Source: a virus (lineage: Duplodnaviria > Caudoviricetes). Taken from it: DNA of 64,000 nucleotides. A program made the position numbers and the translations under genes. Below the pieces are notes generated by a model. It did no database searches. It saw nothing but the letters and a program-made list of their open reading frames with translations, and had not been told where the DNA came from. Each line of letters begins with the position of its first letter. Position 1 is the first letter of the stretch. Positions 12,089 through 20,914 of the stretch are shown in pieces. The DNA lies in the IMG/VR virus record IMGVR_UViG_3300027759_000044. One strand, given 5' to 3'.

Positions 12089-12163
12089 TGGCATACCCCC
12101 AAGGATTCGAACCTTGCCTTGCGGTTTTGGAGACCGATGTGCTGCCGCTAACACCAGGGATAC
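12089..12163 (-). tRNA. trnW: tRNA-Trp(CCA)
   Basis: Cloverleaf, loop CTCCAAA, T-loop GGTTCGAATCC, encoded CCA. Confidence 0.9.
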
Positions 12164-12168
12164 ATTGT

Positions 12169-12390
12169 TTACAAATTCTTTCTAATTCGTTTAAGATATT
12201 CACGTCCAACAAGTCCTTGTTCAATTTCTTCTAATGCAGTTACCATTGGCCCTGATTTAGTATTAAGCATAGAACGATGTCCTCGTTTTAATTCTCTTAC
12301 ACGTTGTGAGGCGATAAGAACTAAATCAAAACGATTACCGACCATGAGTGCGGCTTCTTCACTTGTATATCTTGCTCTGCTTTGTGACAT
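12169..12390 (-). CDS. rpoZ: RNA polymerase omega subunit
   Basis: 73 aa from MSQSRARYTSEEAALMVGNRFDLVLIASQRVRELKRG...VTALEEIEQG; matches omega signature NRFDLVLxAxxRARxL...ALxEI. Confidence 0.88.
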   Translation of the reverse strand: MSQSRARYTSEEAALMVGNRFDLVLIASQRVRELKRGHRSMLNTKSGPMVTALEEIEQGLVGREYLKRIRKNL

Positions 12391-12410
12391 AATTTTCCTT
12401 TTAAAAATTT

Positions 12411-12486
12411 TGGTGGGTCGTGACAGGCTCGAACTGCCGACATTCTGCGTGTAAGGCAGACGCTCTACCAACTGAGCTAACGACCC
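12411..12486 (-). tRNA. trnV: tRNA-Val(TAC)
   Basis: Cloverleaf, loop CTTACAC, CCA end. Confidence 0.93.
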
Positions 12487-12491
12487 GATGT

Positions 12492-12671
12492 TTAACCACC
12501 TTGGTTACTATCTTTAACTTCTGTTTGACTAGCAATTCTTTCAAATGCTTCATCTTCTATTTGTTGATCCTCAATCATTCTTGGATCTGGCTTACGAAAG
12601 ATATTATCCCAGTTATTATTAAACGTATTTAAATCTACGCTATATGGTCTAGGAAGACTACCTTTGCTCAT
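12492..12671 (-). CDS. Small hypothetical protein (59 aa, MSKGSLPRP...)
   Basis: Hand-translated; start overlaps upstream stop. Confidence 0.6.
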   Translation of the reverse strand: MSKGSLPRPYSVDLNTFNNNWDNIFRKPDPRMIEDQQIEDEAFERIASQTEVKDSNQGG

Positions 12672-12835
12672 TTGCTATTATCCTTGCGAGAACTTGTACG
12701 TGAATTGCTTTTTTCAATTTCAACAAAACTACGAATAAAAGCTCCACGTTCATGTGCATCACGAATTAGTGTTGCCGCACGTTTAACTGCTTTAGGGATT
12801 TTAACTGCCCTTGAATCATAACCTCTACATGTCAT
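12668..12835 (-). CDS. Small basic hypothetical protein (55 aa, MTCRGYDSRAVKIPK...)
   Basis: Hand-translated; SD GAGGA. Confidence 0.6.
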   Translation of the reverse strand: MTCRGYDSRAVKIPKAVKRAATLIRDAHERGAFIRSFVEIEKSNSRTSSRKDNSK

Positions 12836-12860
12836 ACTATTTCCTCTTTTAAAAAATCAT

Positions 12861-12934
12861 TGGTCTCGGTAGCAGGAATCGAACCTACGCTCGAACGTCC
12901 CAAACGTTCAGTGATACCATTTCACCATACCGAG
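12861..12934 (-). tRNA. trnP: tRNA-Pro(TGG)
   Basis: Anticodon arm GAACG-TTTGGGA-CGTTC, CCA end. Confidence 0.92.
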
Positions 12935-12940
12935 ATAAAC

Positions 12941-13090
12941 TTAACTTGGTATTATATGTGGTATATATGGAACATTACGTGGACCATGTCGCTGTTCAAG
13001 TAGCTTTTTAGCTTCTTGTACATTTGGTGCGTACACTTTGTCCTTTTTATCACCTTCCGGTGTTCTTACTGTTGTTTCATACATTGGCAT
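12941..13090 (-). CDS. Small hypothetical protein (49 aa, MPMYETTVRTPEG...)
   Basis: Hand-translated; SD AGGAG; ends approximate. Confidence 0.55.
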   Translation of the reverse strand: MPMYETTVRTPEGDKKDKVYAPNVQEAKKLLEQRHGPRNVPYIPHIIPS

Positions 13091-13141
13091 ATAATTCTCC
13101 TATTTGGTTACGCCATACGGCACTTAAACTATTTTATTTGG

Positions 13142-13672
13142 TTAATATGCCCAAATAACTCCTGAAAAACGTGTTCCTTTTGTTACTTCTGTCACACCAT
13201 GTCGATATAAAAAGGTAGAAGGGAACAGTAATACATCACCTTGACTTAATTTTATAACTTCATCGTTCATTGTAAAATTTCCACCTTCAAAATCATCATT
13301 AAAAACTAATATCATAGATATAACAGGAATACCATCATCTTTATTTCTTCTAATTAAATCATAGTGAGGTGACATTATAGTACCGACTGAATATTTGTTT
13401 AATCTTAACTCAGAACAAAATGATACTATCATATCCATATTCAATTCTATTAAATATTCCAGCATTGCTTGATGTATGTAAGGGTCTATATAATCAACAT
13501 TATTAAATAATACATCTAATTCTCTATTATGCTGAGGGCCGTATTTATCTGCTCCAGCACTGTACCATGCATGTTGTACCCAATTAGGATGATCTTTATG
13601 TTCTCTAATTACTTTTTCACAAATATCTTTTGGTATAATATTATATATTTTACAATAGTCTTTGATTTCCAT
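13142..13672 (-). CDS. 2OG-Fe(II) oxygenase (prolyl-4-hydroxylase/PKHD-like)
   Basis: HYD...LVFNDDFEGGNF...YRHGVTEVTKGTR facial triad and Arg. Confidence 0.88.
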   Translation of the reverse strand: MEIKDYCKIYNIIPKDICEKVIREHKDHPNWVQHAWYSAGADKYGPQHNRELDVLFNNVDYIDPYIHQAMLEYLIELNMDMIVSFCSELRLNKYSVGTIMSPHYDLIRRNKDDGIPVISMILVFNDDFEGGNFTMNDEVIKLSQGDVLLFPSTFLYRHGVTEVTKGTRFSGVIWAY

Positions 13673-13689
13673 AAGTTCACCTTTAAATT

Positions 13690-13764
13690 TGGATGCGGGG
13701 GACGGATTCGCACCGCCGATCTTCAGGTTATGAGCCTGATGAGTTACTACTTCTCTACCCCGCG
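13690..13764 (-). tRNA. tRNA-fMet(CAT), initiator type
   Basis: CGCGGGG acceptor with C1:A72 mismatch, loop CTCATAA; atypical T-loop TGCGAAT. Confidence 0.85.
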
Positions 13765-13770
13765 CTATCT

Positions 13771-13846
13771 TGGTGGAGGAGACAGGGATCGAACCTGCGA
13801 CCTATTGCTTGCAAAGCAACCGCTCTCCCAACTGAGCTACACCCCC
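13771..13846 (-). tRNA. trnA: tRNA-Ala(TGC)
   Basis: Cloverleaf, loop TTTGCAA, CCA end. Confidence 0.92.
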
Positions 13847-13855
13847 AAATACTTT

Positions 13856-13940
13856 TGGTGCCCTAGGTCGGACTCGAACCGACACATATTTCTACGCCAG
13901 AACCTAAATCTGGTGCGTCTACCAATTTCGCCACCAGGGC
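13856..13940 (-). tRNA. trnL: tRNA-Leu(TAG)
   Basis: Long variable arm, loop TTTAGGT, CCA end. Confidence 0.92.
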
Positions 13941-14000
13941 ATTCATTTCAATACTTATTGTAACATAAAACTATTTAGTTGTCTACTACTTTGGATAACT

Positions 14001-14074
14001 TGGAGCGGGGTAACAGAATCGAACTGTCAGCATTAGCTTGGAAGGCTAAGGTATTACCACTATACGAACCCCGC
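14001..14074 (-). tRNA. trnG: tRNA-Gly(TCC)
   Basis: Loop CTTCCAA, CCA end. Confidence 0.93.
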
Positions 14075-14100
14075 AAAAAAGCCCACAGTATTTAGTGGGC
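14075..14100 (-). terminator. Intrinsic terminator whose loop contains the late promoter core
   Basis: Minus strand GCCCAC-TAAATACT-GTGGGC-TTTTTT immediately 5' of tRNA-Gly. Confidence 0.7.
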
Positions 14101-14122
14101 CCTTTGTCTGTGTGTGAAAGTT

Positions 14123-14362
14123 TTATTTCCTATCAAAGGCCCAGAATAAAACTCCTAGAGCAACAAGACCTACTAGACCTTGACTACCCAATGCTGTCAC
14201 AAACTTTAATACATTACCTAAAATGTCTAAACCTATGAATGGCACTGCCGCTCCGAAAATGATTTGTAAGATTACGCCTACTGCTAATAACTTGATACCT
14301 AAGTCAACTACGTGCCCTAGAAATCCACCAGCAATATCGAATGCGTTATTCATTTTTTCCAT
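14123..14362 (-). CDS. Small membrane protein
   Basis: Hydrophobic helices; SD AAGGA before MEKMNNAF. Confidence 0.75.
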   Translation of the reverse strand: MEKMNNAFDIAGGFLGHVVDLGIKLLAVGVILQIIFGAAVPFIGLDILGNVLKFVTALGSQGLVGLVALGVLFWAFDRK

Positions 14363-14469
14363 GTTTTTGTTTCCTTTCACAAACTAATATTTACCTCTTT
14401 GTGAAGGCTTCAAAGCACATTCTCTTTACATTATTAGACTATTCTTATTACACAATAAGTCTATATATT

Positions 14470-14545
14470 TGGAGTAGGTGACAGGAGTCGAACCTGCATA
14501 GCACGGATTTGCAATCCGCTACCTAACCATTCGGTACACACCTAC
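14470..14545 (-). tRNA. trnC: tRNA-Cys(GCA)
   Basis: Loop TTGCAAA, U73, CCA end. Confidence 0.92.
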
Positions 14546-14550
14546 ATAAA

Positions 14551-14637
14551 AGCATATTGAAACACACTAACTACCTTGGTATGTACTAAAGTTCAATGAA
14601 CCGCTACGACCCTATCTTTAATGTGCTTCAATATGCT
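14551..14637 (-). ncRNA. Hairpin RNA, 20-bp stem + 47-nt loop (element A)
   Basis: AGCATATTGAAGCACATTAA / TTAGTGTGTTTCAATATGCT pair fully on minus strand with two G-U wobbles; 5 nt before tRNA-Cys. Confidence 0.65.
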
Positions 14638-14639
14638 CT

Positions 14640-14832
14640 GCGTCCCCCGGCGGTAATTATAGTACAAAAAGATATGACGCTATCATACCCCTCACACGTA
14701 CCTTCCACCCGCTTCCCGACAGGGACCGTTCTCGCATTGCTAGCGGCCTTTGGGTTTAAAGACTACCACCCGTAGTTGTCACACTACTTCTCATCCTGCG
14801 GGTCACAGTATCCGGAGACACCCGGAACGTTC
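14640..14832 (-). ncRNA. Unidentified GC-rich structured RNA (~190 nt)
   Basis: Hairpins TCCGG/CCGGA, ACTAC/GTAGT, GGTATGAT/GTCATATC (G-U on minus), possible closing CGTTCC/GGGACG. Confidence 0.55.
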
Positions 14833-14847
14833 TTTTATAAATACAGT

Positions 14848-15030
14848 ATGGAACTACAAAACTGTATTGATGTTGTTGAAAAGTTGTTGCGTCAAAACAA
14901 ACGTAATTACAAAGATAGCCACGAACAATTGTTATATGAACGAGGATACCTTACTGGATTACTTGCTAGATTGATGAATGATGACCCTCATATTCTACAT
15001 AAAGTCATAAACAAAACAAATAATCGCTAA
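14848..15030 (+). CDS. Small hypothetical late protein (60 aa)
   Basis: TATAAATA 4 nt before ATG 14848; LYERGYLTGLLARL. Confidence 0.65.
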   Translation: MELQNCIDVVEKLLRQNKRNYKDSHEQLLYERGYLTGLLARLMNDDPHILHKVINKTNNR

Positions 15031-15031
15031 T

Positions 15032-15123
15032 TGGTGGAGACGGTGAGATTCGAACTCACGGTACATATTACTACATACGACAGGTTAGCAACCTGCTGCC
15101 TTAGGCCACTCGGCCACGTCTCC
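15032..15123 (-). tRNA. trnS: tRNA-Ser(GCT)
   Basis: Long variable arm, loop TTGCTAA, CCA end. Confidence 0.92.
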
Positions 15124-15137
15124 TGATAAATACAAAA

Positions 15138-15659
15138 ATGCAACACAATTTCTTTTACAAAAAAATAGGTAACATATCTGATGATTTGCTTTACGGTTTA
15201 CAAAGTGATGCAATATCTGCAACATATAAATCAACTTCAGATTTTTCATCCAATGTATTAACTACCAGTAATAGAGTTAACAGTAAATTACTTATTAAGT
15301 TATTTACTGAGCTAGCTACTGTGTTTAAAATTATAGGTCATATAGGCACTAATTATGCTAAAATGTATCCATTGAGTTATCTCAAAGAACATAGCGACCT
15401 TTCGTCATATGAAAAAGAACCATTGAATTATTCAACTATGGTAAAATTGCAAATCCCTATCATAACAAATGAAAAAGTAGGAATGATGTGGGCACCAACT
15501 CCTAATGAAACTACACTTGTTAACTTTGATATAGGTGGAATTTACATTATCGATAATGTAAGAACTCACTCTGTGGTAAATCTAAGCAATGAATATAGAT
15601 ATAATCTAACCTCTAGATGGAAGGTTGATTCATTACTTGATACATCAATCTTAGAGTAA
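15138..15659 (+). CDS. Asp/Asn beta-hydroxylase-like 2OG oxygenase
   Basis: LKEHSD...KLQIPIITNEK...IDNVRTHSVVNLSNEYRYNL. Confidence 0.75.
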   Translation: MQHNFFYKKIGNISDDLLYGLQSDAISATYKSTSDFSSNVLTTSNRVNSKLLIKLFTELATVFKIIGHIGTNYAKMYPLSYLKEHSDLSSYEKEPLNYSTMVKLQIPIITNEKVGMMWAPTPNETTLVNFDIGGIYIIDNVRTHSVVNLSNEYRYNLTSRWKVDSLLDTSILE

Positions 15660-15662
15660 TAC

Positions 15663-15739
15663 TGGTGCCTCCACCTGGACTCGAACCAGGAACCAACGGA
15701 TTATGAGTCCGCTGCGCTAACCAATTGCGCTATAGAGGC
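15663..15739 (-). tRNA. tRNA-Ile2(CAT, lysidine type)
   Basis: Anticodon arm GCGGA-CTCATAA-TCCGT and overall similarity to bacterial Ile2; Met identity not excluded. Confidence 0.78.
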
Positions 15740-15748
15740 ATCATTCTT

Positions 15749-15833
15749 TGGTGCGAGTGCCCGGAATCGAACCGGGATGCCGTTAAGCGAGAGATTTTAA
15801 GTCTCTTGTGTCTACCTATTTCACCACACTCGC
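15749..15833 (-). tRNA. trnL: tRNA-Leu(TAA)
   Basis: Loop CTTAAAA, long variable arm, CCA end. Confidence 0.93.
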
Positions 15834-15846
15834 AAATCATGTTATC

Positions 15847-15875
15847 ATTATATATCAATCAATGATTGTAGTCAA
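15847..15875 (-). promoter_or_regulatory. Internal sigma70 promoter in tRNA cluster
   Basis: TTGACT-17 nt-TATAAT just upstream of tRNA-Leu(TAA). Confidence 0.7.
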
Positions 15876-15894
15876 ATATTATGGTTAACTAACT

Positions 15895-15969
15895 TGGCGG
15901 TCCCAGCGGGTAACGATCCCGCTCCTCATGCGTGACAGGCATGTATGCGTCCATGAACACTTTGAGACC
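15895..15969 (-). tRNA. trnD: tRNA-Asp(GTC)
   Basis: Loop CTGTCAC, G73, CCA end; atypical T-loop ATCGTTA. Confidence 0.88.
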
Positions 15970-15978
15970 TAATACTGA

Positions 15979-16037
15979 ATAGGACACCCCTTTGGCCTAG
16001 GTCATTTAAGAGTACGCCTGCCCAGCGACTCTCCTAT
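15979..16037 (-). ncRNA. Possible hairpin RNA, 6-bp stem + 47-nt loop (element B)
   Basis: ATAGGA/TCCTAT closing pair, GC-rich interior with GAGT-CGC/GCG-TACTC hairpin; between tRNA-Tyr and tRNA-Asp. Confidence 0.35.
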
Positions 16038-16042
16038 ATTCT

Positions 16043-16127
16043 TGGTGGAGATTACTGGGATCGAACCAGTCGTGCTATAAAGCGGCGGATTTACAATCCA
16101 CTGCATCACCATTGATGCTTCATCTCC
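16043..16127 (-). tRNA. trnY: tRNA-Tyr(GTA)
   Basis: Loop TTGTAAA, long variable arm, CCA end. Confidence 0.92.
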
Positions 16128-16131
16128 GAGA

Positions 16132-16194
16132 TGAGTTACGGTTGCAAGACCTAGTGTCTCATTACTGAGAGAAGTATCAGGGCGATGTAACTCA
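16132..16194 (-). ncRNA. Hairpin RNA, 8-bp stem + 47-nt loop (element C)
   Basis: TGAGTTAC/GTAACTCA; central TCTCA-GTAA-TGAGA GNRA hairpin; 4 nt before tRNA-Tyr. Confidence 0.55.
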
Positions 16195-16199
16195 AAAAA

Positions 16200-16402
16200 T
16201 TAGTATAAGCTACTTGTTTCCACACAAGCCCTTAATTGAGCAGTTACTCTGTCCATCTCCATTTATTCAAAGTCTGTGTGCAGTTGAGATTCTGCCTATC
16301 AGAGCCTGCGAGGGTATTTTTAATCCTCACGCTAACGGTTTTCTGCCACCGGATCTCTATCGCTAATCAAACGCTATTTTAACGAAAATAGTAACGGGAT
16401 AC
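16200..16402 (-). ncRNA. Unidentified structured RNA (~200 nt)
   Basis: Hairpins CTATTTT/AAAATAG, GCGTGAGG/CCCTCGC, GAG-TAACTG-CTC, CTTGT/ACAAG; no ORF. Confidence 0.45.
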
Positions 16403-16478
16403 TGGAGCTCGGTACGGGATTCGAACCCGTGTGAATGCCGTGAAAGGGCACTATCCTAGGCCGCTAGATGAACCGAGC
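16403..16478 (-). tRNA. trnE: tRNA-Glu(TTC)
   Basis: Loop CTTTCAC, CCA end. Confidence 0.92.
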
Positions 16479-16480
16479 AA

Positions 16481-16694
16481 ACTATATGAAAAAACATTAA
16501 GGAACGTAAACTGTATCTACCAGTACCGTCTACTGGATCGTTGTTTCTGTCATTACTGCCTAACTTCCCGTCACGTTAAACAATATTGCTATTGTAGATA
16601 CGCTTCTTGCACCCTATGCGACCCAGTCCGTCAACTGGCTGACCCCATAGACCTACCTAACGGATTAGGTTACCTTAATGTATTTTCATATAGT
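16481..16694 (-). ncRNA. Multibranch RNA closed by a 22-bp stem (214 nt)
   Basis: ACTATATGAAAATACATTAAGG pairs with CCTTAATGTTTTTTCATATAGT (1 mismatch); interior GTATCTAC/GTAGATAC, two CCAGT/ACTGG hairpins, ACCTAA-TCCG-TTAGGT; 2 nt before tRNA-Glu. Confidence 0.65.
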
Positions 16695-16731
16695 CCCTGT
16701 AACTTAAACAGGGCTATATGATAACTCAGAA

Positions 16732-16773
16732 TTTTAAAGAACTCGGTTGAGTAGTACGATGACTTTTCTCAAC
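16732..16773 (-). promoter_or_regulatory. rrn-like boxB hairpin + boxA antitermination signal
   Basis: GTTGAG/CTCAAC hairpin followed by AGTTCTTTAAAA just after promoter 16784-16812. Confidence 0.5.
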
Positions 16774-16783
16774 TCATGCTATG

Positions 16784-16812
16784 ATTGTAGCACAACTTCC
16801 ATTTATTGTCAA
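16784..16812 (-). promoter_or_regulatory. sigma70 promoter (tandem P2)
   Basis: TTGACA-17 nt-TACAAT. Confidence 0.8.
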
Positions 16813-16864
16813 ATTCTTTCGTTTCTCTGTTTCCCAAGAACTTGTTCAATCAATCTATGTCTAG

Positions 16865-16893
16865 AGTATAGCAGATTGAGGATTTATTGTCAA
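16865..16893 (-). promoter_or_regulatory. sigma70 promoter (tandem P1)
   Basis: TTGACA-17 nt-TATACT. Confidence 0.8.
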
Positions 16894-16947
16894 ATTTACT
16901 ATTTTAGTACTTAATACTACATAAAATATGTGATGATAAATATTCTT

Positions 16948-17544
16948 ATGACAACCTCCCTATATGATGATTTAGAATTACCAAAAACTTGCACCTCTGA
17001 AGAAATCAAACAAAAATACAGAATCTTAGCACAATTACATCATCCCGATAAGGGAGGGGATGTGGAAAAGTTCAAACGAATGAAATTGGCATATGAAGTA
17101 TTAAGTGACCCAATTAAACGTGAACACTATGATTCTACCGGTGATCATTATAATGATATTAATCTTGACAGTGAAGTTATGGGCAGGCTAGCTGTTATGC
17201 TTTCACAATTTGTTCAACATATCAATCCAGAGATTGATGATTTAATATTAAAAATGCGAATTGAAATCCGTGCATTACAACAACTGACAACAAATGCTAT
17301 TGTAGAATGTAACAATCTAATAGACAAGATGAATATTATTTCTAAGAAGATTAAATTAAAAAAAGAGGGTGAGAACTTATTAAAGTCTGTAGTTGATAAA
17401 AAAATCTTAGGACTGCATACTGAAATAATTAACCACAAAAGAGGATTAATAGTTTTTGCTAGAATGCTAGAAGTATTAGAGGATTATCATTTTAGTAGTG
17501 ACGAATGGAAACTACTACTAGAAAATTTTGATGGTCCAGCGTAG
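16948..17544 (+). CDS. J-domain (DnaJ-like) protein
   Basis: LYDDLEL...EEIKQKYRILAQLHHPDKGGDVEKFKRMKLAYEVLSDP; HPD motif; start reassigned from TAAATA+5 nt. Confidence 0.9.
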   Translation: MTTSLYDDLELPKTCTSEEIKQKYRILAQLHHPDKGGDVEKFKRMKLAYEVLSDPIKREHYDSTGDHYNDINLDSEVMGRLAVMLSQFVQHINPEIDDLILKMRIEIRALQQLTTNAIVECNNLIDKMNIISKKIKLKKEGENLLKSVVDKKILGLHTEIINHKRGLIVFARMLEVLEDYHFSSDEWKLLLENFDGPA

Positions 17545-17606
17545 AGGAATCGAACCTCTATTGATAGCTTAGAAGGCTACTGTATTATCCATTATACTAA
17601 CGCCAG
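17532..17606 (-). tRNA. trnR: tRNA-Arg(TCT)
   Basis: Loop CTTCTAA, CCA end; overlaps 3' end of J-domain CDS in antisense. Confidence 0.92.
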
Positions 17607-17621
17607 AGGTTTTAATTTATT

Positions 17622-17697
17622 TGGCTCCCCTACGTGGGCTCGAACCACGGACATTTTGATTAACAGTCAAACGCTCTACCGACTGAGCTATAGGAGA
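17622..17697 (-). tRNA. trnN: tRNA-Asn(GTT)
   Basis: Loop CTGTTAA, CCA end. Confidence 0.93.
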
Positions 17698-17704
17698 ATA
17701 TGTT

Positions 17705-17780
<76 letters not shown>

Positions 17781-17806
17781 GACTTTTTATTTAATAGTAT
17801 TATACA

Positions 17807-18367
17807 CTAACTTAATAAAATTCTACTATGTTTTGGAACACCTGCTAACAAATATTCCATTTGGTCAGCAAGTATTGTTCTATGTTGTAATATCATATTT
17901 TCATAGTGATTAGGGACATAAGGTGTGTATAGTAATTCCATACGTACTTCTTTCAAACTCTTATGACCTTTTTTACTGTTACAATCTTTACAAGCTGTAA
18001 CAACATTCATCCAAGTGTTTTCACCACCTTTGCTCCGAGGAACAATGTGGTCACGACTTAGTAGATGATAGTTTGGAAACTGTTCCCCGCAATAAGCACA
18101 TACATGTCTATCACGACCAAACAATGTTTTATTGGTTAGTGCCACACATGAATGTTTGTATGGATTGAATCCATGACCTTTTATGGCAATAATGCTACTA
18201 GCTTCTAAGTAACTTAATGTGCCGTCATTTTGTATGCCACCACGATATTTAGCCACAATATTACCCATTGACCATGCTATGGCATCTTTTGCTTTATAGG
18301 TAATTGCGTCATCATTTGATATCCATTGCCGGGGAACTCCCGAGATATCTAGTGCTAGAACAGCCAT
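17807..18367 (-). CDS. HNH endonuclease (McrA/HNH_5-like)
   Basis: RDRHVCAYCG...DHIVPRSKGG...NVVTACKDCNSKKG; SD GGAG before MAVLALD. Confidence 0.9.
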   Translation of the reverse strand: MAVLALDISGVPRQWISNDDAITYKAKDAIAWSMGNIVAKYRGGIQNDGTLSYLEASSIIAIKGHGFNPYKHSCVALTNKTLFGRDRHVCAYCGEQFPNYHLLSRDHIVPRSKGGENTWMNVVTACKDCNSKKGHKSLKEVRMELLYTPYVPNHYENMILQHRTILADQMEYLLAGVPKHSRILLS

Positions 18368-18414
18368 GTAGTACTCCTTTTCTGTTATTATCACTATATG
18401 TATTTAATGCCGAG

Positions 18415-18489
18415 TGGCGGGTCCTGCAGGAATTGAACCCACATCCCGAAGTTCGAAGCATCGTATTCTATCCATTGAACTAAGGACCC
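18415..18489 (-). tRNA. trnR: tRNA-Arg(TCG)
   Basis: Loop CTTCGAA, CCA end. Confidence 0.88.
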
Positions 18490-18649
18490 GATTAAAGAGG
18501 GAGCCTAGCTATCTTATTGTTAGTAAGCCTCGCTAGATTGTCTCGTATAGGCAAGTTTATACACCTATCAATCATACTATAGTGTCATCACAGTTAACCC
18601 CACTGTGACTAGATTGACAGGGACTCAAACCTATCGTCTATCCCATAAC
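18490..18649 (-). ncRNA. Possible structured RNA between tRNA-Gln and tRNA-Arg(TCG)
   Basis: TCACAGT/ACTGTGA and TAGG/CCTA hairpins, duplicated CAATCTAG; no ORF. Confidence 0.35.
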
Positions 18650-18727
18650 TGGCACCCCCTCAAGGATTCGAACCTCAGAATGTCGGAATCAAAATCCGAT
18701 GCCTTAGACCAACTTGGCGAAGGGGGT
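18650..18727 (-). tRNA. trnQ: tRNA-Gln(TTG)
   Basis: Arm TCGGA-TTTTGAT-TCCGA, CCA end. Confidence 0.9.
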
Positions 18728-18732
18728 AAATT

Positions 18733-18806
18733 TGGTACCCAGTAGAGGTAACGCTCCTCTGATTCACCCTTATCAGGGGTGTGTTATACTTTTTAACTAA
18801 CCGGGC
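18733..18806 (-). tRNA. trnI: tRNA-Ile(GAT), atypical D and T loops
   Basis: Arm CACCC-CTGATAA-GGGTG; D-loop lacks GG; T-loop AGCGTTA. Confidence 0.82.
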
Positions 18807-18811
18807 ATGTT

Positions 18812-18886
18812 TGGTGGATGTAAGTAGATTTGAACTACTGACCTATTCCGTATGAAGGAATTGCACTACCGCTGTGCTATACATCC
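18812..18886 (-). tRNA. tRNA-Met(CAT), elongator type
   Basis: Arm ATTCC-TTCATAC-GGAAT, paired 1:72. Confidence 0.85.
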
Positions 18887-18965
18887 TGGTACCCCTGATC
18901 GGGTTTGAACCGACAACTGACGCTCTCTCTTGAAGAACCGACTTTTCCTATTTGTCTACAGGGGC
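18887..18965 (-). tRNA. Atypical tRNA-Leu-like gene (anticodon AAG or CAA depending on register)
   Basis: Normal acceptor/D/T arms and CCA; arm GTTCT-TCAAGAG-AGAGC puts C at 33; short variable region. Confidence 0.55.
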
Positions 18966-18971
18966 ATTGAT

Positions 18972-19048
18972 TGGGGTGCTTGATGGGATTCGAACCCACG
19001 TATATCGGAATCACAATCCGAGGTCTTAACCGCTTGACGACAAGCACC
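18972..19048 (-). tRNA. trnH: tRNA-His(GTG)
   Basis: Loop TTGTGAT, G-1:C73, CCA end. Confidence 0.93.
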
Positions 19049-19054
19049 GTGTAT

Positions 19055-19144
19055 TGGTAGAAACGGTGAGATTCGAACTCACGGACCCTTTCGGATCGAC
19101 AGTTTTCAAGACTGTTGCCATAAACCTGACTCGACCACGTTTCC
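19055..19144 (-). tRNA. trnS: tRNA-Ser(TGA)
   Basis: Loop CTTGAAA, long variable arm. Confidence 0.92.
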
Positions 19145-19150
19145 ATATTA

Positions 19151-19226
19151 TGGTGGGACCAGGGCGGTTCGAACGCCCGACCAACGGATTAAAAGTCCGC
19201 TGCTCTACCGACTGAGCTATGGTCCC
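19151..19226 (-). tRNA. trnK: tRNA-Lys(TTT)
   Basis: Loop CTTTTAA, CCA end. Confidence 0.93.
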
Positions 19227-19232
19227 GTATAT

Positions 19233-19309
19233 TGGTGCGACCGGAAGGACTTGAACCTCCGACTCCCTATTTCGTAGACAGGTACTCTAATCCACTGAGT
19301 TACGGCCGC
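19233..19309 (-). tRNA. trnR: tRNA-Arg(ACG)
   Basis: Loop CTACGAA, CCA end. Confidence 0.92.
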
Positions 19310-19390
19310 ATTCTAAAACACACATAGTACACCCTAGTCAACAGGGTTGCCCTCTTGGCCTTATTTTCCACGATGTATGTTTTAGAATGC
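19308..19390 (-). ncRNA. Hairpin RNA, 18-bp stem + 47-nt loop (element D)
   Basis: GCATTCTAAAACATACAT / ATGTGTGTTTTAGAATGC (one G-U on minus); overlaps first 2 nt of tRNA-Arg(ACG). Confidence 0.65.
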
Positions 19391-19536
19391 CGTGTATCTC
19401 TACACGACATGATAGGGTCAATACCCTACCCAGTAGTCTTACTAACATGTTGTCTCCATGCTTTCATGTATACTGTCCGCCCATTCTATACATTTAACGT
19501 TGTATTACGGCTCTCGTTGCCTATTCACGTTATCTA
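19391..19536 (-). ncRNA. Possible structured RNA (~145 nt)
   Basis: Hairpins CGTGTA-GAGA-TACACG, GGTAGGGT-ATTG-ACCCTATC, TACA/TGTA, GGC/GCC; no ORF. Confidence 0.45.
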
Positions 19537-19704
19537 TCAAGCAATACCAGCTAGCTTGTTAGCTTTCTTGGTAGCCTCTTGAAAGACTTTAGCACGTTGA
19601 AGTTTATTTTCTATCAACTGTGCTACTTGTTCCTTAGTCAAAACATGATTGCTAAACCAATCTTGTTTGTTTTCAGAAGTTTTGTATTCTATCTGTTCAT
19701 CCAT
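19537..19704 (-). CDS. Small hypothetical protein (55 aa, MDEQIEYKTS...)
   Basis: Hand-translated; first ORF after the attenuator; SD GAGG about 12 nt upstream. Confidence 0.45.
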   Translation of the reverse strand: MDEQIEYKTSENKQDWFSNHVLTKEQVAQLIENKLQRAKVFQEATKKANKLAGIA

Positions 19705-19726
19705 TTCTTGTCAAATCCTCTCTGTA

Positions 19727-19764
19727 AAAGCAAAAACCCCTGAGACTGTTAGTTCCCAGGGGTT
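19727..19764 (-). terminator. Attenuator terminator
   Basis: AACCCCTGGGA(AC)-TAACA-GTCTCAGGGGTT followed by TTTGCTTTT. Confidence 0.85.
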
Positions 19765-19810
19765 AGATAAAGTTGTTATGATGTTAACTTGTTACCTAGT
19801 CCCCGGGGTT
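19755..19810 (-). promoter_or_regulatory. Antiterminator helix overlapping leader stop codon and terminator 5' arm
   Basis: CCCCGGGG-AC-TAGGTA-AC-AAGTT...AACTT-TATCTA-A-CCCCTGGG; three stacked helices. Confidence 0.75.
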
Positions 19811-19929
19811 CTCTCTTGGTTATCATTTGAACCGCGAATACTTGTTGGATATGCTGGTACAAAGGATACACTGGCTAATGACAGCCACTGTCCGGTGTGT
19901 TTCAACATGTTACAAGTTTTATTCATCAT
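19792..19929 (-). CDS. 45-aa leader peptide containing all 20 amino acids
   Basis: MMNKTCNMLKHTGQWLSLASVSFVPAYPTSIRGSNDNQERTPGTR*; below ORF-track cutoff; TAAATA 7 nt upstream of ATG and sigma70 promoter at 19985-20013. Confidence 0.75.
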   Translation of the reverse strand: MMNKTCNMLKHTGQWLSLASVSFVPAYPTSIRGSNDNQERTPGTR

Positions 19930-19984
19930 AGTCTTTTATTTAGTCCTGGGTGCAAAATTTACACCTTTTCTCAATTCATGCTGA

Positions 19985-20013
19985 AGTATAGCATAGGTCG
20001 GAATTAATGTCAA
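19985..20013 (-). promoter_or_regulatory. sigma70 promoter heading the tRNA cluster
   Basis: TTGACA-17 nt-TATACT. Confidence 0.85.
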
Positions 20014-20023
20014 CATCTTAGGG

Positions 20024-20914
20024 TTATTTCACATTTTTGATAGCAGAATCTACATGAGCCTTAAGAGTAGCTGGCCCAAATTTTGATGGTTCAATGTGTT
20101 CCGTTGTAAAATATTCAACTGTTGAAGTATCTGTTAAATATTTTTGTATTAAATTACCCCAAAAGATATGTACTTCTGTATTAGTATTATTTGGCAGCAC
20201 TATAGCAAAACCATCGTTAGATTCCCAATTTGGATATCTTTTGTATAAATCTGTGGTTTCATTAATTTTTACAGTAGTAGCTATCAATACTATTTTCTTA
20301 GAATCAATTTGAGATTTTACTATATTGAGTGGAACTACTGCAACATCAATATGCCCTCCTAATAAATCATTGAGTAGAGGATTTGCTCCCTTATAAGGAA
20401 TGAAGTCCGGCGGTGTTGTTTTATTATGTAAAAATAATTGGTTTAGTGCAATTTTTTGTGCTGGTGCACCAAATGCAAAACTTTTTGTTATCTTTTTAGC
20501 TTTGATTTCAACTTCTAAATCATTAATAGTTTTAATTCCACTATTTGTATGTGTGATTACAGCCATTGTCGGCTTGCTAATCATAGAGATGTAATCAAAT
20601 TGGTAATCGGGATATTTGTTTTTGTACGTAGCAATACCTGCTATAGTAACAAATCCTATGGTTGATCCATTATTTTTTGCGGCCGCGATTTCAGACAAAC
20701 CAATTAAACTATCTGCACCGGGTTTGTATGTTGGAATAATTACCAATCCACTAGTTTCTTCTATATATTTTTGAAAATGTTTGAATGCAATATCTGTTCC
20801 GCCCCCCGGTGGAAATGGTATAATCATTTTTACAGAATTTTTATCTGAATTAAATAACTGGGCTGAACATAAAGATGATATTGTAAGTAAAAATATTGTT
20901 ATAAATTTTTTCAT
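20024..20914 (-). CDS. Bug/TctC-family tripartite tricarboxylate transporter substrate-binding protein
   Basis: Signal peptide; MIIPFPPGGGTD, YKPGADSLIG, IPYKGANPLLNDLLGGHID motifs. Confidence 0.88.
   Translation of the reverse strand: MKKFITIFLLTISSLCSAQLFNSDKNSVKMIIPFPPGGGTDIAFKHFQKYIEETSGLVIIPTYKPGADSLIGLSEIAAAKNNGSTIGFVTIAGIATYKNKYPDYQFDYISMISKPTMAVITHTNSGIKTINDLEVEIKAKKITKSFAFGAPAQKIALNQLFLHNKTTPPDFIPYKGANPLLNDLLGGHIDVAVVPLNIVKSQIDSKKIVLIATTVKINETTDLYKRYPNWESNDGFAIVLPNNTNTEVHIFWGNLIQKYLTDTSTVEYFTTEHIEPSKFGPATLKAHVDSAIKNVK

Follow-up and report, generated by a model that had tools for sequence, protein, structure and literature searches.

The near-complete tRNA sets of large phages are the subject of a debate in which tuning to codon usage is set against replacement of tRNAs destroyed by host defences, and we know of essentially no account of how phage tRNA arrays are regulated. 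The DNA analysed here (the window, 64,000 nucleotides) is part of a jumbo phage genome of about 349 kb known from metagenomes only. Its minus strand includes a tRNA array (12089..19309) with 25 genes identified by ARAGORN and one further Rfam tRNA match at 16046-16127, which is presumed to be the regulated target. The same strand carries, ahead of this array, a short ORF of 45 sense codons followed by TAA (19929..19792). A preliminary description based on the letters of the sequence had proposed that this ORF, by including all 20 amino acids and many isoacceptor codons, is a leader that senses the deficiency of any tRNA. The locus therefore raises the question of whether the ORF is a genuine element, what its relation to the tRNA genes is, and whether its composition has a function.

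Composition of the leader ORF

A direct count confirmed that the ORF includes the 20 amino acids and 34 distinct codons in 45, and the recount and translation agree exactly with the preliminary description, as do the synonymous sets listed there for Leu, Ser, Arg, Gly, Thr, Gln, Pro, and Ala. Most amino acids are found once or twice, the commonest occur five times each, and there is no run of one regulatory codon. When 45 codons were drawn from the codon usage of the 36 long ORFs of the window, the probability of obtaining all 20 amino acids was 0.006, that of obtaining at least 34 distinct codons was 0.002, and that of both was 1.8e-4. The same three figures were 0.013, 0.003, and 4e-4 for real 45-codon segments of those long ORFs, and 0.02, 0.15, and 0.008 for random open frames with the base composition of the leader ORF. 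The composition is unusual with respect to the coding DNA of this genome and only moderately unusual with respect to GC-richer random sequence. Simulation of 45-codon ORFs was the check suggested in the preliminary description, and its outcome is that such a composition is rare (all 20 amino acids in 0.6-1.3% of the cases, and jointly with at least 34 codons in about 2e-4).

The G+C content of the leader region is higher than that of its surroundings. The enrichment in G/C-ending codons pointed out previously was borne out, as GC3 is 0.42 in the leader ORF, while the genes have 0.21 and a value of 0.26 would be expected from its peptide. On the other hand, the idea that the ORF samples many isoacceptors did not hold: given the peptide, 30.6 +/- 1.9 distinct codons are expected versus the 34 observed (P = 0.06, not significant), so that the codons add almost nothing to what the peptide already implies. 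The rare G/C-ending codons sit in RNA helices and are thus explained without any tRNA sensing.

Distribution and coding character of the leader ORF

The leader peptide belongs to a 21-member protein cluster, and one protein search found relatives down to 71% identity. A profile search through 1.84 billion proteins resulted in matches to 28 cluster representatives. Collections of DNA were also scanned with nucleotide patterns, a procedure that escapes the bias of gene callers; these scans identified 23 and then 62 loci on viral contigs (of up to 524 kb), as well as 92 family-like loci in metagenomes. In every complete copy among the 62 viral-contig and 92 metagenome loci the frame is open over 43-50 codons. 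Insertions and deletions within the frame are multiples of three while those in the flanks are not, and the pooled Nei-Gojobori pN/pS ratio is 0.50 in the frame versus 0.98 and 1.00 in the shifted frames. The same pattern run against 185,579 cellular genomes produced 24 matches, all 24 of them chance matches without leader ORF or tRNAs. No cultured relatives were found in the GenBank phage collection using the DNA, the leader peptide, or the neighbouring 526-amino acid protein as queries. A search for the locus through the upstream TctC-like protein found none, and this upstream gene is not part of the module. Taken from these sequence comparisons, the leader frame is evidently a real, widespread gene-like element under selection, and the element appears at the head of the tRNA arrays of widespread uncultured, mostly freshwater jumbo phages.

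No Shine-Dalgarno sequence is found at normal spacing before the leader ORF. Scanning of the 25 nt upstream of each long ORF of the window revealed a Shine-Dalgarno-like 4-mer at -18 to -4 in only 11 of the 36, so its absence before the leader ORF means little; this scarcity suggests that the host relies little on Shine-Dalgarno pairing. Many of the long ORFs of the window are preceded by A-rich leaders rather than by a Shine-Dalgarno sequence.

Contigs from lake metatranscriptomes of four studies span positions 19452-20014 and, in 4 runs, bridge the terminator described below; they do not extend over the flanking gene. These contigs, which may include DNA, carry no transcript ends, strand, or level, and bridging cannot prove a single transcript; we take them as a hint that the element is expressed.

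Genetic organization of the locus

In a set of 74 loci the element is followed by a tRNA gene on the same strand whenever the downstream DNA extends for at least about 500 nt. The first tRNA is located 260-1537 nt past the leader stop codon, there are up to 31 tRNAs per locus, and no tRNA was found in the 3 kb upstream of the element in any of the 74 loci. This arrangement was replicated in the metagenome collection, where a tRNA is found downstream in 54 of the 54 loci with at least 700 nt of downstream DNA. The upstream gene varies from locus to locus and can be TctC-like or code for a CMD, aldolase, rubrerythrin, or oxygenase protein. A constant tRNA array downstream together with a varying upstream gene identifies the element as the head of the tRNA array. 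A tRNA-Phe was not found in the array of the window, although the leader has a Phe codon; the window thus runs counter to a correspondence between the residue types of a leader and the tRNAs of its array.

Upstream of the leader ORF there is a predicted promoter, P1 (19985..20013, minus strand), that consists of TTGACA, a 17-bp spacer, and an extended -10 region (TG-n-TATACT), and matches the consensus in 11 of 12 positions. Although the upstream genes differ, most homologues conserve the -35 and -10 regions of P1 as well as the initial bases of the transcript. In most homologues a TTGGGTAAAC-like motif and an A-rich stretch (20016-20035, minus strand, in the window) are located about 10 nt upstream of the P1 -35 region; the motif occupies the same place in loci L001-L079 and is weak in the copy of the window. 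As it is present despite differing upstream genes, it may be an UP element or the site of a regulator.

A second, sigma70-like promoter site, P2 (19686..19714, minus strand; TTGACA, 17 bp, TAGAAT; 11 of 12 positions), separates the terminator from the array and is conserved in most, not all, homologues. A -35 context similar to that of P2 recurs within the array at about position 16810. Two more sigma70-like promoters are observed inside the array (16765-16893, minus strand), and one of them joins the P2 -35 context (ATTTGACAATAAATGGA) to the P1 first transcribed bases (AGCATGAgTTGAGAAAAG), a combination suggestive of a single promoter/leader class throughout the array. Because of P2 and the promoters inside the array, a switch located at the leader may govern only or mainly the 55-amino acid ORF described below, or part of the transcription of the tRNAs.

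The terminator is followed by a conserved ORF coding for 55 amino acids (19537..19704, minus strand), the start of which is overlapped by P2. Homologues of 48-55 amino acids occupy the same place in most loci. No Pfam match and only a weak PHROG match were found for this ORF, which has no known relatives; the family shares the motif IEY..S...W....L(T/S).E(E/Q)..LI..K..RAK.Y. If P2 is active, its transcription start falls inside the ORF, and the protein could come only from read-through from P1. The gap between this ORF and the first tRNA of the window is about 230 nt. This G+C-rich spacer (19310-19536, minus strand) opens with a block that is conserved across loci (GTGAATAGGCAACGAGAGCCGTAATAC), and may be another structured RNA. 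Within the tRNA array there are also genes for a DnaJ-domain protein (16930-17544, plus strand) and an HNH endonuclease (17807-18394, minus strand).

Structure of the leader RNA

The leader transcript has a fold z-score of -3.3, and conservation of the nucleotides passes both ends of the frame, continuing for about 20 nt past the stop codon. A 5'-proximal hairpin (19949..19965, minus strand) is present in every predicted fold of the RNA; its length and sequence vary among homologues, its stem is kept, and it is missing in L015. Between this hairpin and the start codon there is an A-rich motif, CCAGGACUAAAUAAA... (19930..19949, minus strand), with nearly invariant nucleotides that are unpaired in the folds of nascent RNA. 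Since this motif is kept even in copies where its distance from the AUG differs by one base, its conservation is not due to coding.

In the minimum-energy fold of the full-length RNA, the start codon and codons 5-7 (19912..19930, minus strand) pair with nucleotides 19777..19792, directly after the stop codon, to form a closing helix that is consistent with the duplex energy and with the conservation past the stop codon. The energy of this duplex ranges from about -8 to -17.5 kcal/mol across homologues (z-scores mostly between -3 and -6), and in the MKNF-type relatives the closing helix is found in an alternative register. The start-codon region of the full-length RNA is thus predicted to be sequestered by the sequence located just past the stop codon.

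A consensus scan identified an intrinsic terminator (19726..19764, minus strand; hairpin 19764..19735) composed of an 11-bp G+C-rich stem, an 8-nt loop, and a U-tract, with a predicted energy of -17.5 kcal/mol. It begins 27 nt past the leader stop codon, and its pairs covary, with changes on both sides in 17, 3, and 1 sequences. A tmRNA was considered and rejected, as there was no match to the ARAGORN tmRNA model or in Rfam; within 19250-20100 Rfam returned nothing better than E = 1.8 except for the neighbouring tRNA.

Antiterminator and predicted effect of ribosome position

The last codons of the leader ORF (codons 41-45 and the stop codon; 19792..19807, minus strand) can form a hairpin with UUUAUCUA and the 5' arm of the terminator (19755..19770, minus strand). 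The predicted energy of this antiterminator is -19.7 kcal/mol versus -17.5 kcal/mol for the terminator, and since both include the strand 19755-19764 the two hairpins are mutually exclusive. With the final 30 nt of the ORF, the 3' strand of the antiterminator forms a duplex of -20.6 kcal/mol, a value reached by 1 of 3000 shuffled sequences and 3 of 8530 genomic 30-mers. Covariation was detected by scripted pair counts as 14 cells changed on both sides, in 5 pairs. In L042, L045, L057, and L051 the ORF strand has followed the terminator arm in its changes, and Pro42 has been given up for Ser or Gln as a consequence. Pairing of region 2 with its matched region 3 averaged -15.08 versus -14.47 +/- 0.14 for permuted partners, and none of 5000 permutations reached the value of the matched pairs. 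The 5' UTR motif GGACUAAAUAA (19930-19944) and the end of the ORF GGACUAGGUAA (19792-19806), both on the minus strand, are near-repeats that can each pair with the same UUUAUCU segment ahead of the terminator. The closing helix and the antiterminator would then be a further pair of competing helices.

One copy, L077:1429-1667 (minus strand), includes only 17 residue types, without C, D, and V, and its antiterminator strand is not adjusted to the changed terminator arm, unlike that of its close relative L042 (-11.2 versus -16.2 kcal/mol). This copy may be undergoing decay.

Equilibrium folds of the complete RNA with ribosome masks contained the terminator in every state, but folds of this kind are blind to a kinetically favoured hairpin and are misleading as a test of attenuation. 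Folds were also calculated for nascent RNA, ending at the terminator loop and with the ribosome masked at set codons. For the copy of the window, the probability of the antiterminator was about 1 when the RNA was naked or had a ribosome at codons 3-36, and 0 when the ribosome was at the stop codon. Twelve divergent homologues behaved similarly, most clearly when queued ribosomes covered the 5' part. Antitermination of the naked nascent RNA was predicted for the window copy but not for L029 or L048, and the protector (1:2) pairing was predicted to be weak and irregular. Geometry and constrained folds agree in that the position of the ribosome would select between the two hairpins, a selection that needs kinetic control. 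In the clade of the window the sole Glu codon is codon 39, seven codons from the end and within the footprint where a stalled ribosome would itself cover part of the antiterminator.

Retention of the 20 amino acids across the family

All 20 residue types are present in 66 of the 77 unique peptides, and the other 11 lack one to three types (among C, D, V, and H). In the metagenome collection the complete set is found in 57 of 65 peptides, and in 35 of the 38 that had not been seen before. It is also found in 13 of 18 representatives that share less than 60% pairwise identity. Only 12 residue types are accounted for by the columns with a conservation of at least 75%. When the variable columns were resampled from the pooled composition of the family, 1.95 complete peptides of 18 were expected and none of 5000 trials reached 13. 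Shuffling within columns gave 3.3 +/- 1.5 of 18, and a five-block shuffle, which is robust to local misalignment, gave 6.0 +/- 1.6 of 18; neither reached 13 in 20,000 trials. A tree-aware simulation that started from a root with all 20 residue types and used column-specific frequencies and parsimony-calibrated rates resulted in 5.4 +/- 2.0 of 18 (P = 0.001), and in 20.9 +/- 8.9 versus the 66 observed when applied to the 77 peptides. Residue types relocate within the peptide: E can occur in any of four blocks, F has shifted from the SF site to a DF site, and K, H, D, and C also change place, as in the case of Asp in L115 compared to L062. We regard these results as good, if not conclusive, evidence that the amino-acid set is kept complete, since the lineages are partly dependent on one another and the trees are weak.

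The preliminary description had suggested checking whether homologous leaders keep their codon diversity while the peptide drifts, and would have taken conservation of the peptide sequence instead as a refutation; the latter was found in part. About 15 peptide columns are conserved (M-N-TC, W15, F-P-Y-P-TS-I-RG, including P-x-YPTSIRG, and G). A pure codon sampler would not need these columns; RNA pairing explains some of them. Changes in the third position within conserved columns are all C/U transitions that keep pairing with G, and therefore the constraints on RNA and peptide are inseparable there. Pairing likewise confounds the observations that Arg32 is always coded by CGY though AGA is preferred, that both Ser codon boxes are present in 50 of 50 copies, and that both Arg boxes are present in 49 of 50.

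Proposed mechanism and alternative explanations

The reading that best accommodates these observations, to which we assign a probability of about 0.5, is that the frame is the leader ORF of a generalist, ribosome-dependent transcription attenuator that heads tRNA arrays, in which the position of the ribosome would decide termination and the all-20 composition would presumably exist for sensing. Transcription would start at the strong sigma70-type promoter P1, and the start codon, located where the nascent RNA is A-rich and unpaired, would be translated while the polymerase proceeds. If the ribosome is at the end of the frame by the time the terminator is made, it would cover the antiterminator strand and the terminator would form, releasing a leader RNA of about 250 nt that would refold with its start codon paired just past the stop codon. 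If the ribosome is late, the antiterminator would form first and transcription would read through into the 55-amino acid gene and the tRNA array. As the frame has every amino acid, the ribosome should be delayed whenever nearly any of the charged tRNAs runs short, and more phage tRNA would be synthesized as a result. Such a shortage could be triggered by a host anticodon-nuclease defence or by a mismatch in codon demand. That the all-20 frame acts in this way as a test track, so that a shortage of charged tRNA switches the phage tRNA array on, is a tentative proposal that we hold at somewhat less than even odds. The sensor of general tRNA deficiency put forward in the preliminary description thus gains from a genuine leader ORF at the head of tRNA arrays, from the covarying terminator and antiterminator, and from the retention of all 20 residues above the null expectation; it loses its isoacceptor component, and the conserved peptide columns, the Glu at codon 39, and promoter P2 after the terminator weigh against it.

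The main rival, which we regard as unlikely but worth serious consideration, is that the ORF codes for a functional small protein that is expressed from a promoter-terminator unit of its own and perhaps acts in tRNA biology or host takeover. The RNA structures would then contribute to mRNA stability or limit translation, and the presence of all 20 amino acids would be a by-product of a diverse conserved sequence. The 15 or so conserved columns, with an invariant YP-TS-I-RG core and W15, agree with this possibility, as do the in-frame purifying selection, the strong promoter and terminator of the unit, the sequestered start codon of the full-length RNA, and the synteny with tRNA arrays, which would suit a tRNA-related protein too. 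However, a small protein does not account for a covarying antiterminator in which the stop codon is embedded and one strand is common to the terminator, and four lineages give up Pro42 to keep the antiterminator pairing. Retention of all 20 residue types exceeds the tree-aware and block nulls, stronger constraint than a pN/pS of 0.5 would be expected of a protein, AlphaFold2 modelled the peptide poorly (pLDDT 62, pTM 0.18), and the leader peptide has no relative in Pfam, PHROG, or the Atlas. A hok-like type I toxin was rejected, as the C-terminal half of the peptide is polar and no segment is of sufficient length for a membrane helix. We consider it somewhat less probable again that the element is a specific attenuator, with a narrow stall window (codons about 27-36, the invariant YPTSIRGSND) or arrest by the nascent peptide, and that the all-20 composition has no role in sensing. 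The invariant residues are at the positions where a ribosome covers region 1 (UUCGCGG, codons 31-33) and not region 2, and a weak 1:2 pairing is predicted; coverage of region 1 with region 2 free is the geometry of the trp-type leaders, the classical attenuators. Against this, the irregular 1:2 pairing loses to the antiterminator in the nascent-RNA folds of the window, and no explanation is offered for why, in the variable parts, residue types change place and are retained in excess.

Two other explanations have a much lower probability. A non-coding structured RNA with a fortuitous frame would account for the G+C content being higher than in the surroundings, for the fold z-score of -3.3, for the nucleotide conservation past both ends of the ORF, and for the lack of a Shine-Dalgarno sequence at normal spacing. 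It is very improbable, as no complete copy has an interrupted frame, indels come in multiples of three, the in-frame pN/pS ratio of 0.50 contrasts with about 1.0 in the other frames, and there is no Rfam or tmRNA match; we dropped this reading once the frame proved to be conserved. Least probable of all, and hardly to be expected, is a RiPP precursor serving a neighbouring cluster of radical-SAM, oxygenase, and PP-loop genes. Radical SAM/SPASM genes are indeed found upstream in L001-L003, but the upstream neighbours vary widely and the constant partner is the downstream tRNA array.

Comparison with other systems

The generalist attenuator that we favour resembles the trpL, hisL, and pheL attenuators and the multivalent ilvL and thrL attenuators in having a short ORF before an intrinsic terminator and an antiterminator that shares a strand with the terminator. 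As in those leaders of amino-acid operons, the end of the ORF is part of the antiterminator strand, and a ribosome at the stop codon would favour termination while a stalled one would favour read-through. Unlike them, the phage element has no run of regulatory codons, includes every amino acid in a long ORF (43-50 codons), and precedes tRNAs and the 55-amino acid ORF instead of biosynthetic enzymes. Its predicted 1:2 hairpin is weak, and for this reason the untranslated RNA of the window is predicted to read through; the released leader is predicted to close on itself and hide the start codon. While classical leader-peptide attenuation depends on a stall at one codon run, almost any delay should give read-through here. 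As judged from its sequence, the element has the structure of a leader-peptide attenuator and lacks the regulatory codon run.

The bmrB leader of bmrCD (PMC4191407) and the leaders of ARE ABC-F genes such as msrD (10.1101/2021.11.29.470318) sense general translation stress. They are similar to the attenuator proposed for the phage in that attenuation responds to slowed or stalled ribosomes and not to one amino acid. They differ in responding to ribosome-targeting antibiotics and in controlling bacterial resistance genes. We know of no requirement for a complete amino-acid set in the bmrB or ARE ABC-F leaders. With the mRNAs of hok-type type I toxins the element shares a long-range 5'-3' pairing that hides the translation start in the full-length RNA, but its peptide is not a hydrophobic membrane peptide and the element is tied to tRNA arrays. 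The tRNA cluster of phage T4 includes two small stable non-coding RNAs, species 1 and 2. Like these, the element would produce a small structured transcript beside phage tRNA genes; unlike these, it has a conserved frame with its own promoter and terminator and heads the array. In the literature that was searched, neither a leader with a complete amino-acid set nor attenuation before tRNA arrays has been described.

Implications for phage tRNA supply

The element is compact, about 290 bp, and might be used as a natural reporter for conditions in which tRNAs or amino acids are limiting. If the proposal is true, leader-peptide attenuation would be extended from one amino acid to all, from enzyme operons to RNA genes, and from bacteria to phages. 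A sensor of all aminoacyl-tRNAs would mean that the supply of phage tRNAs is controlled by feedback. A conserved switch that reads overall translation capacity and thereby gates the array would indicate that these phages make their tRNAs on demand, and would provide a testable handle on the debate about why large phages carry them.
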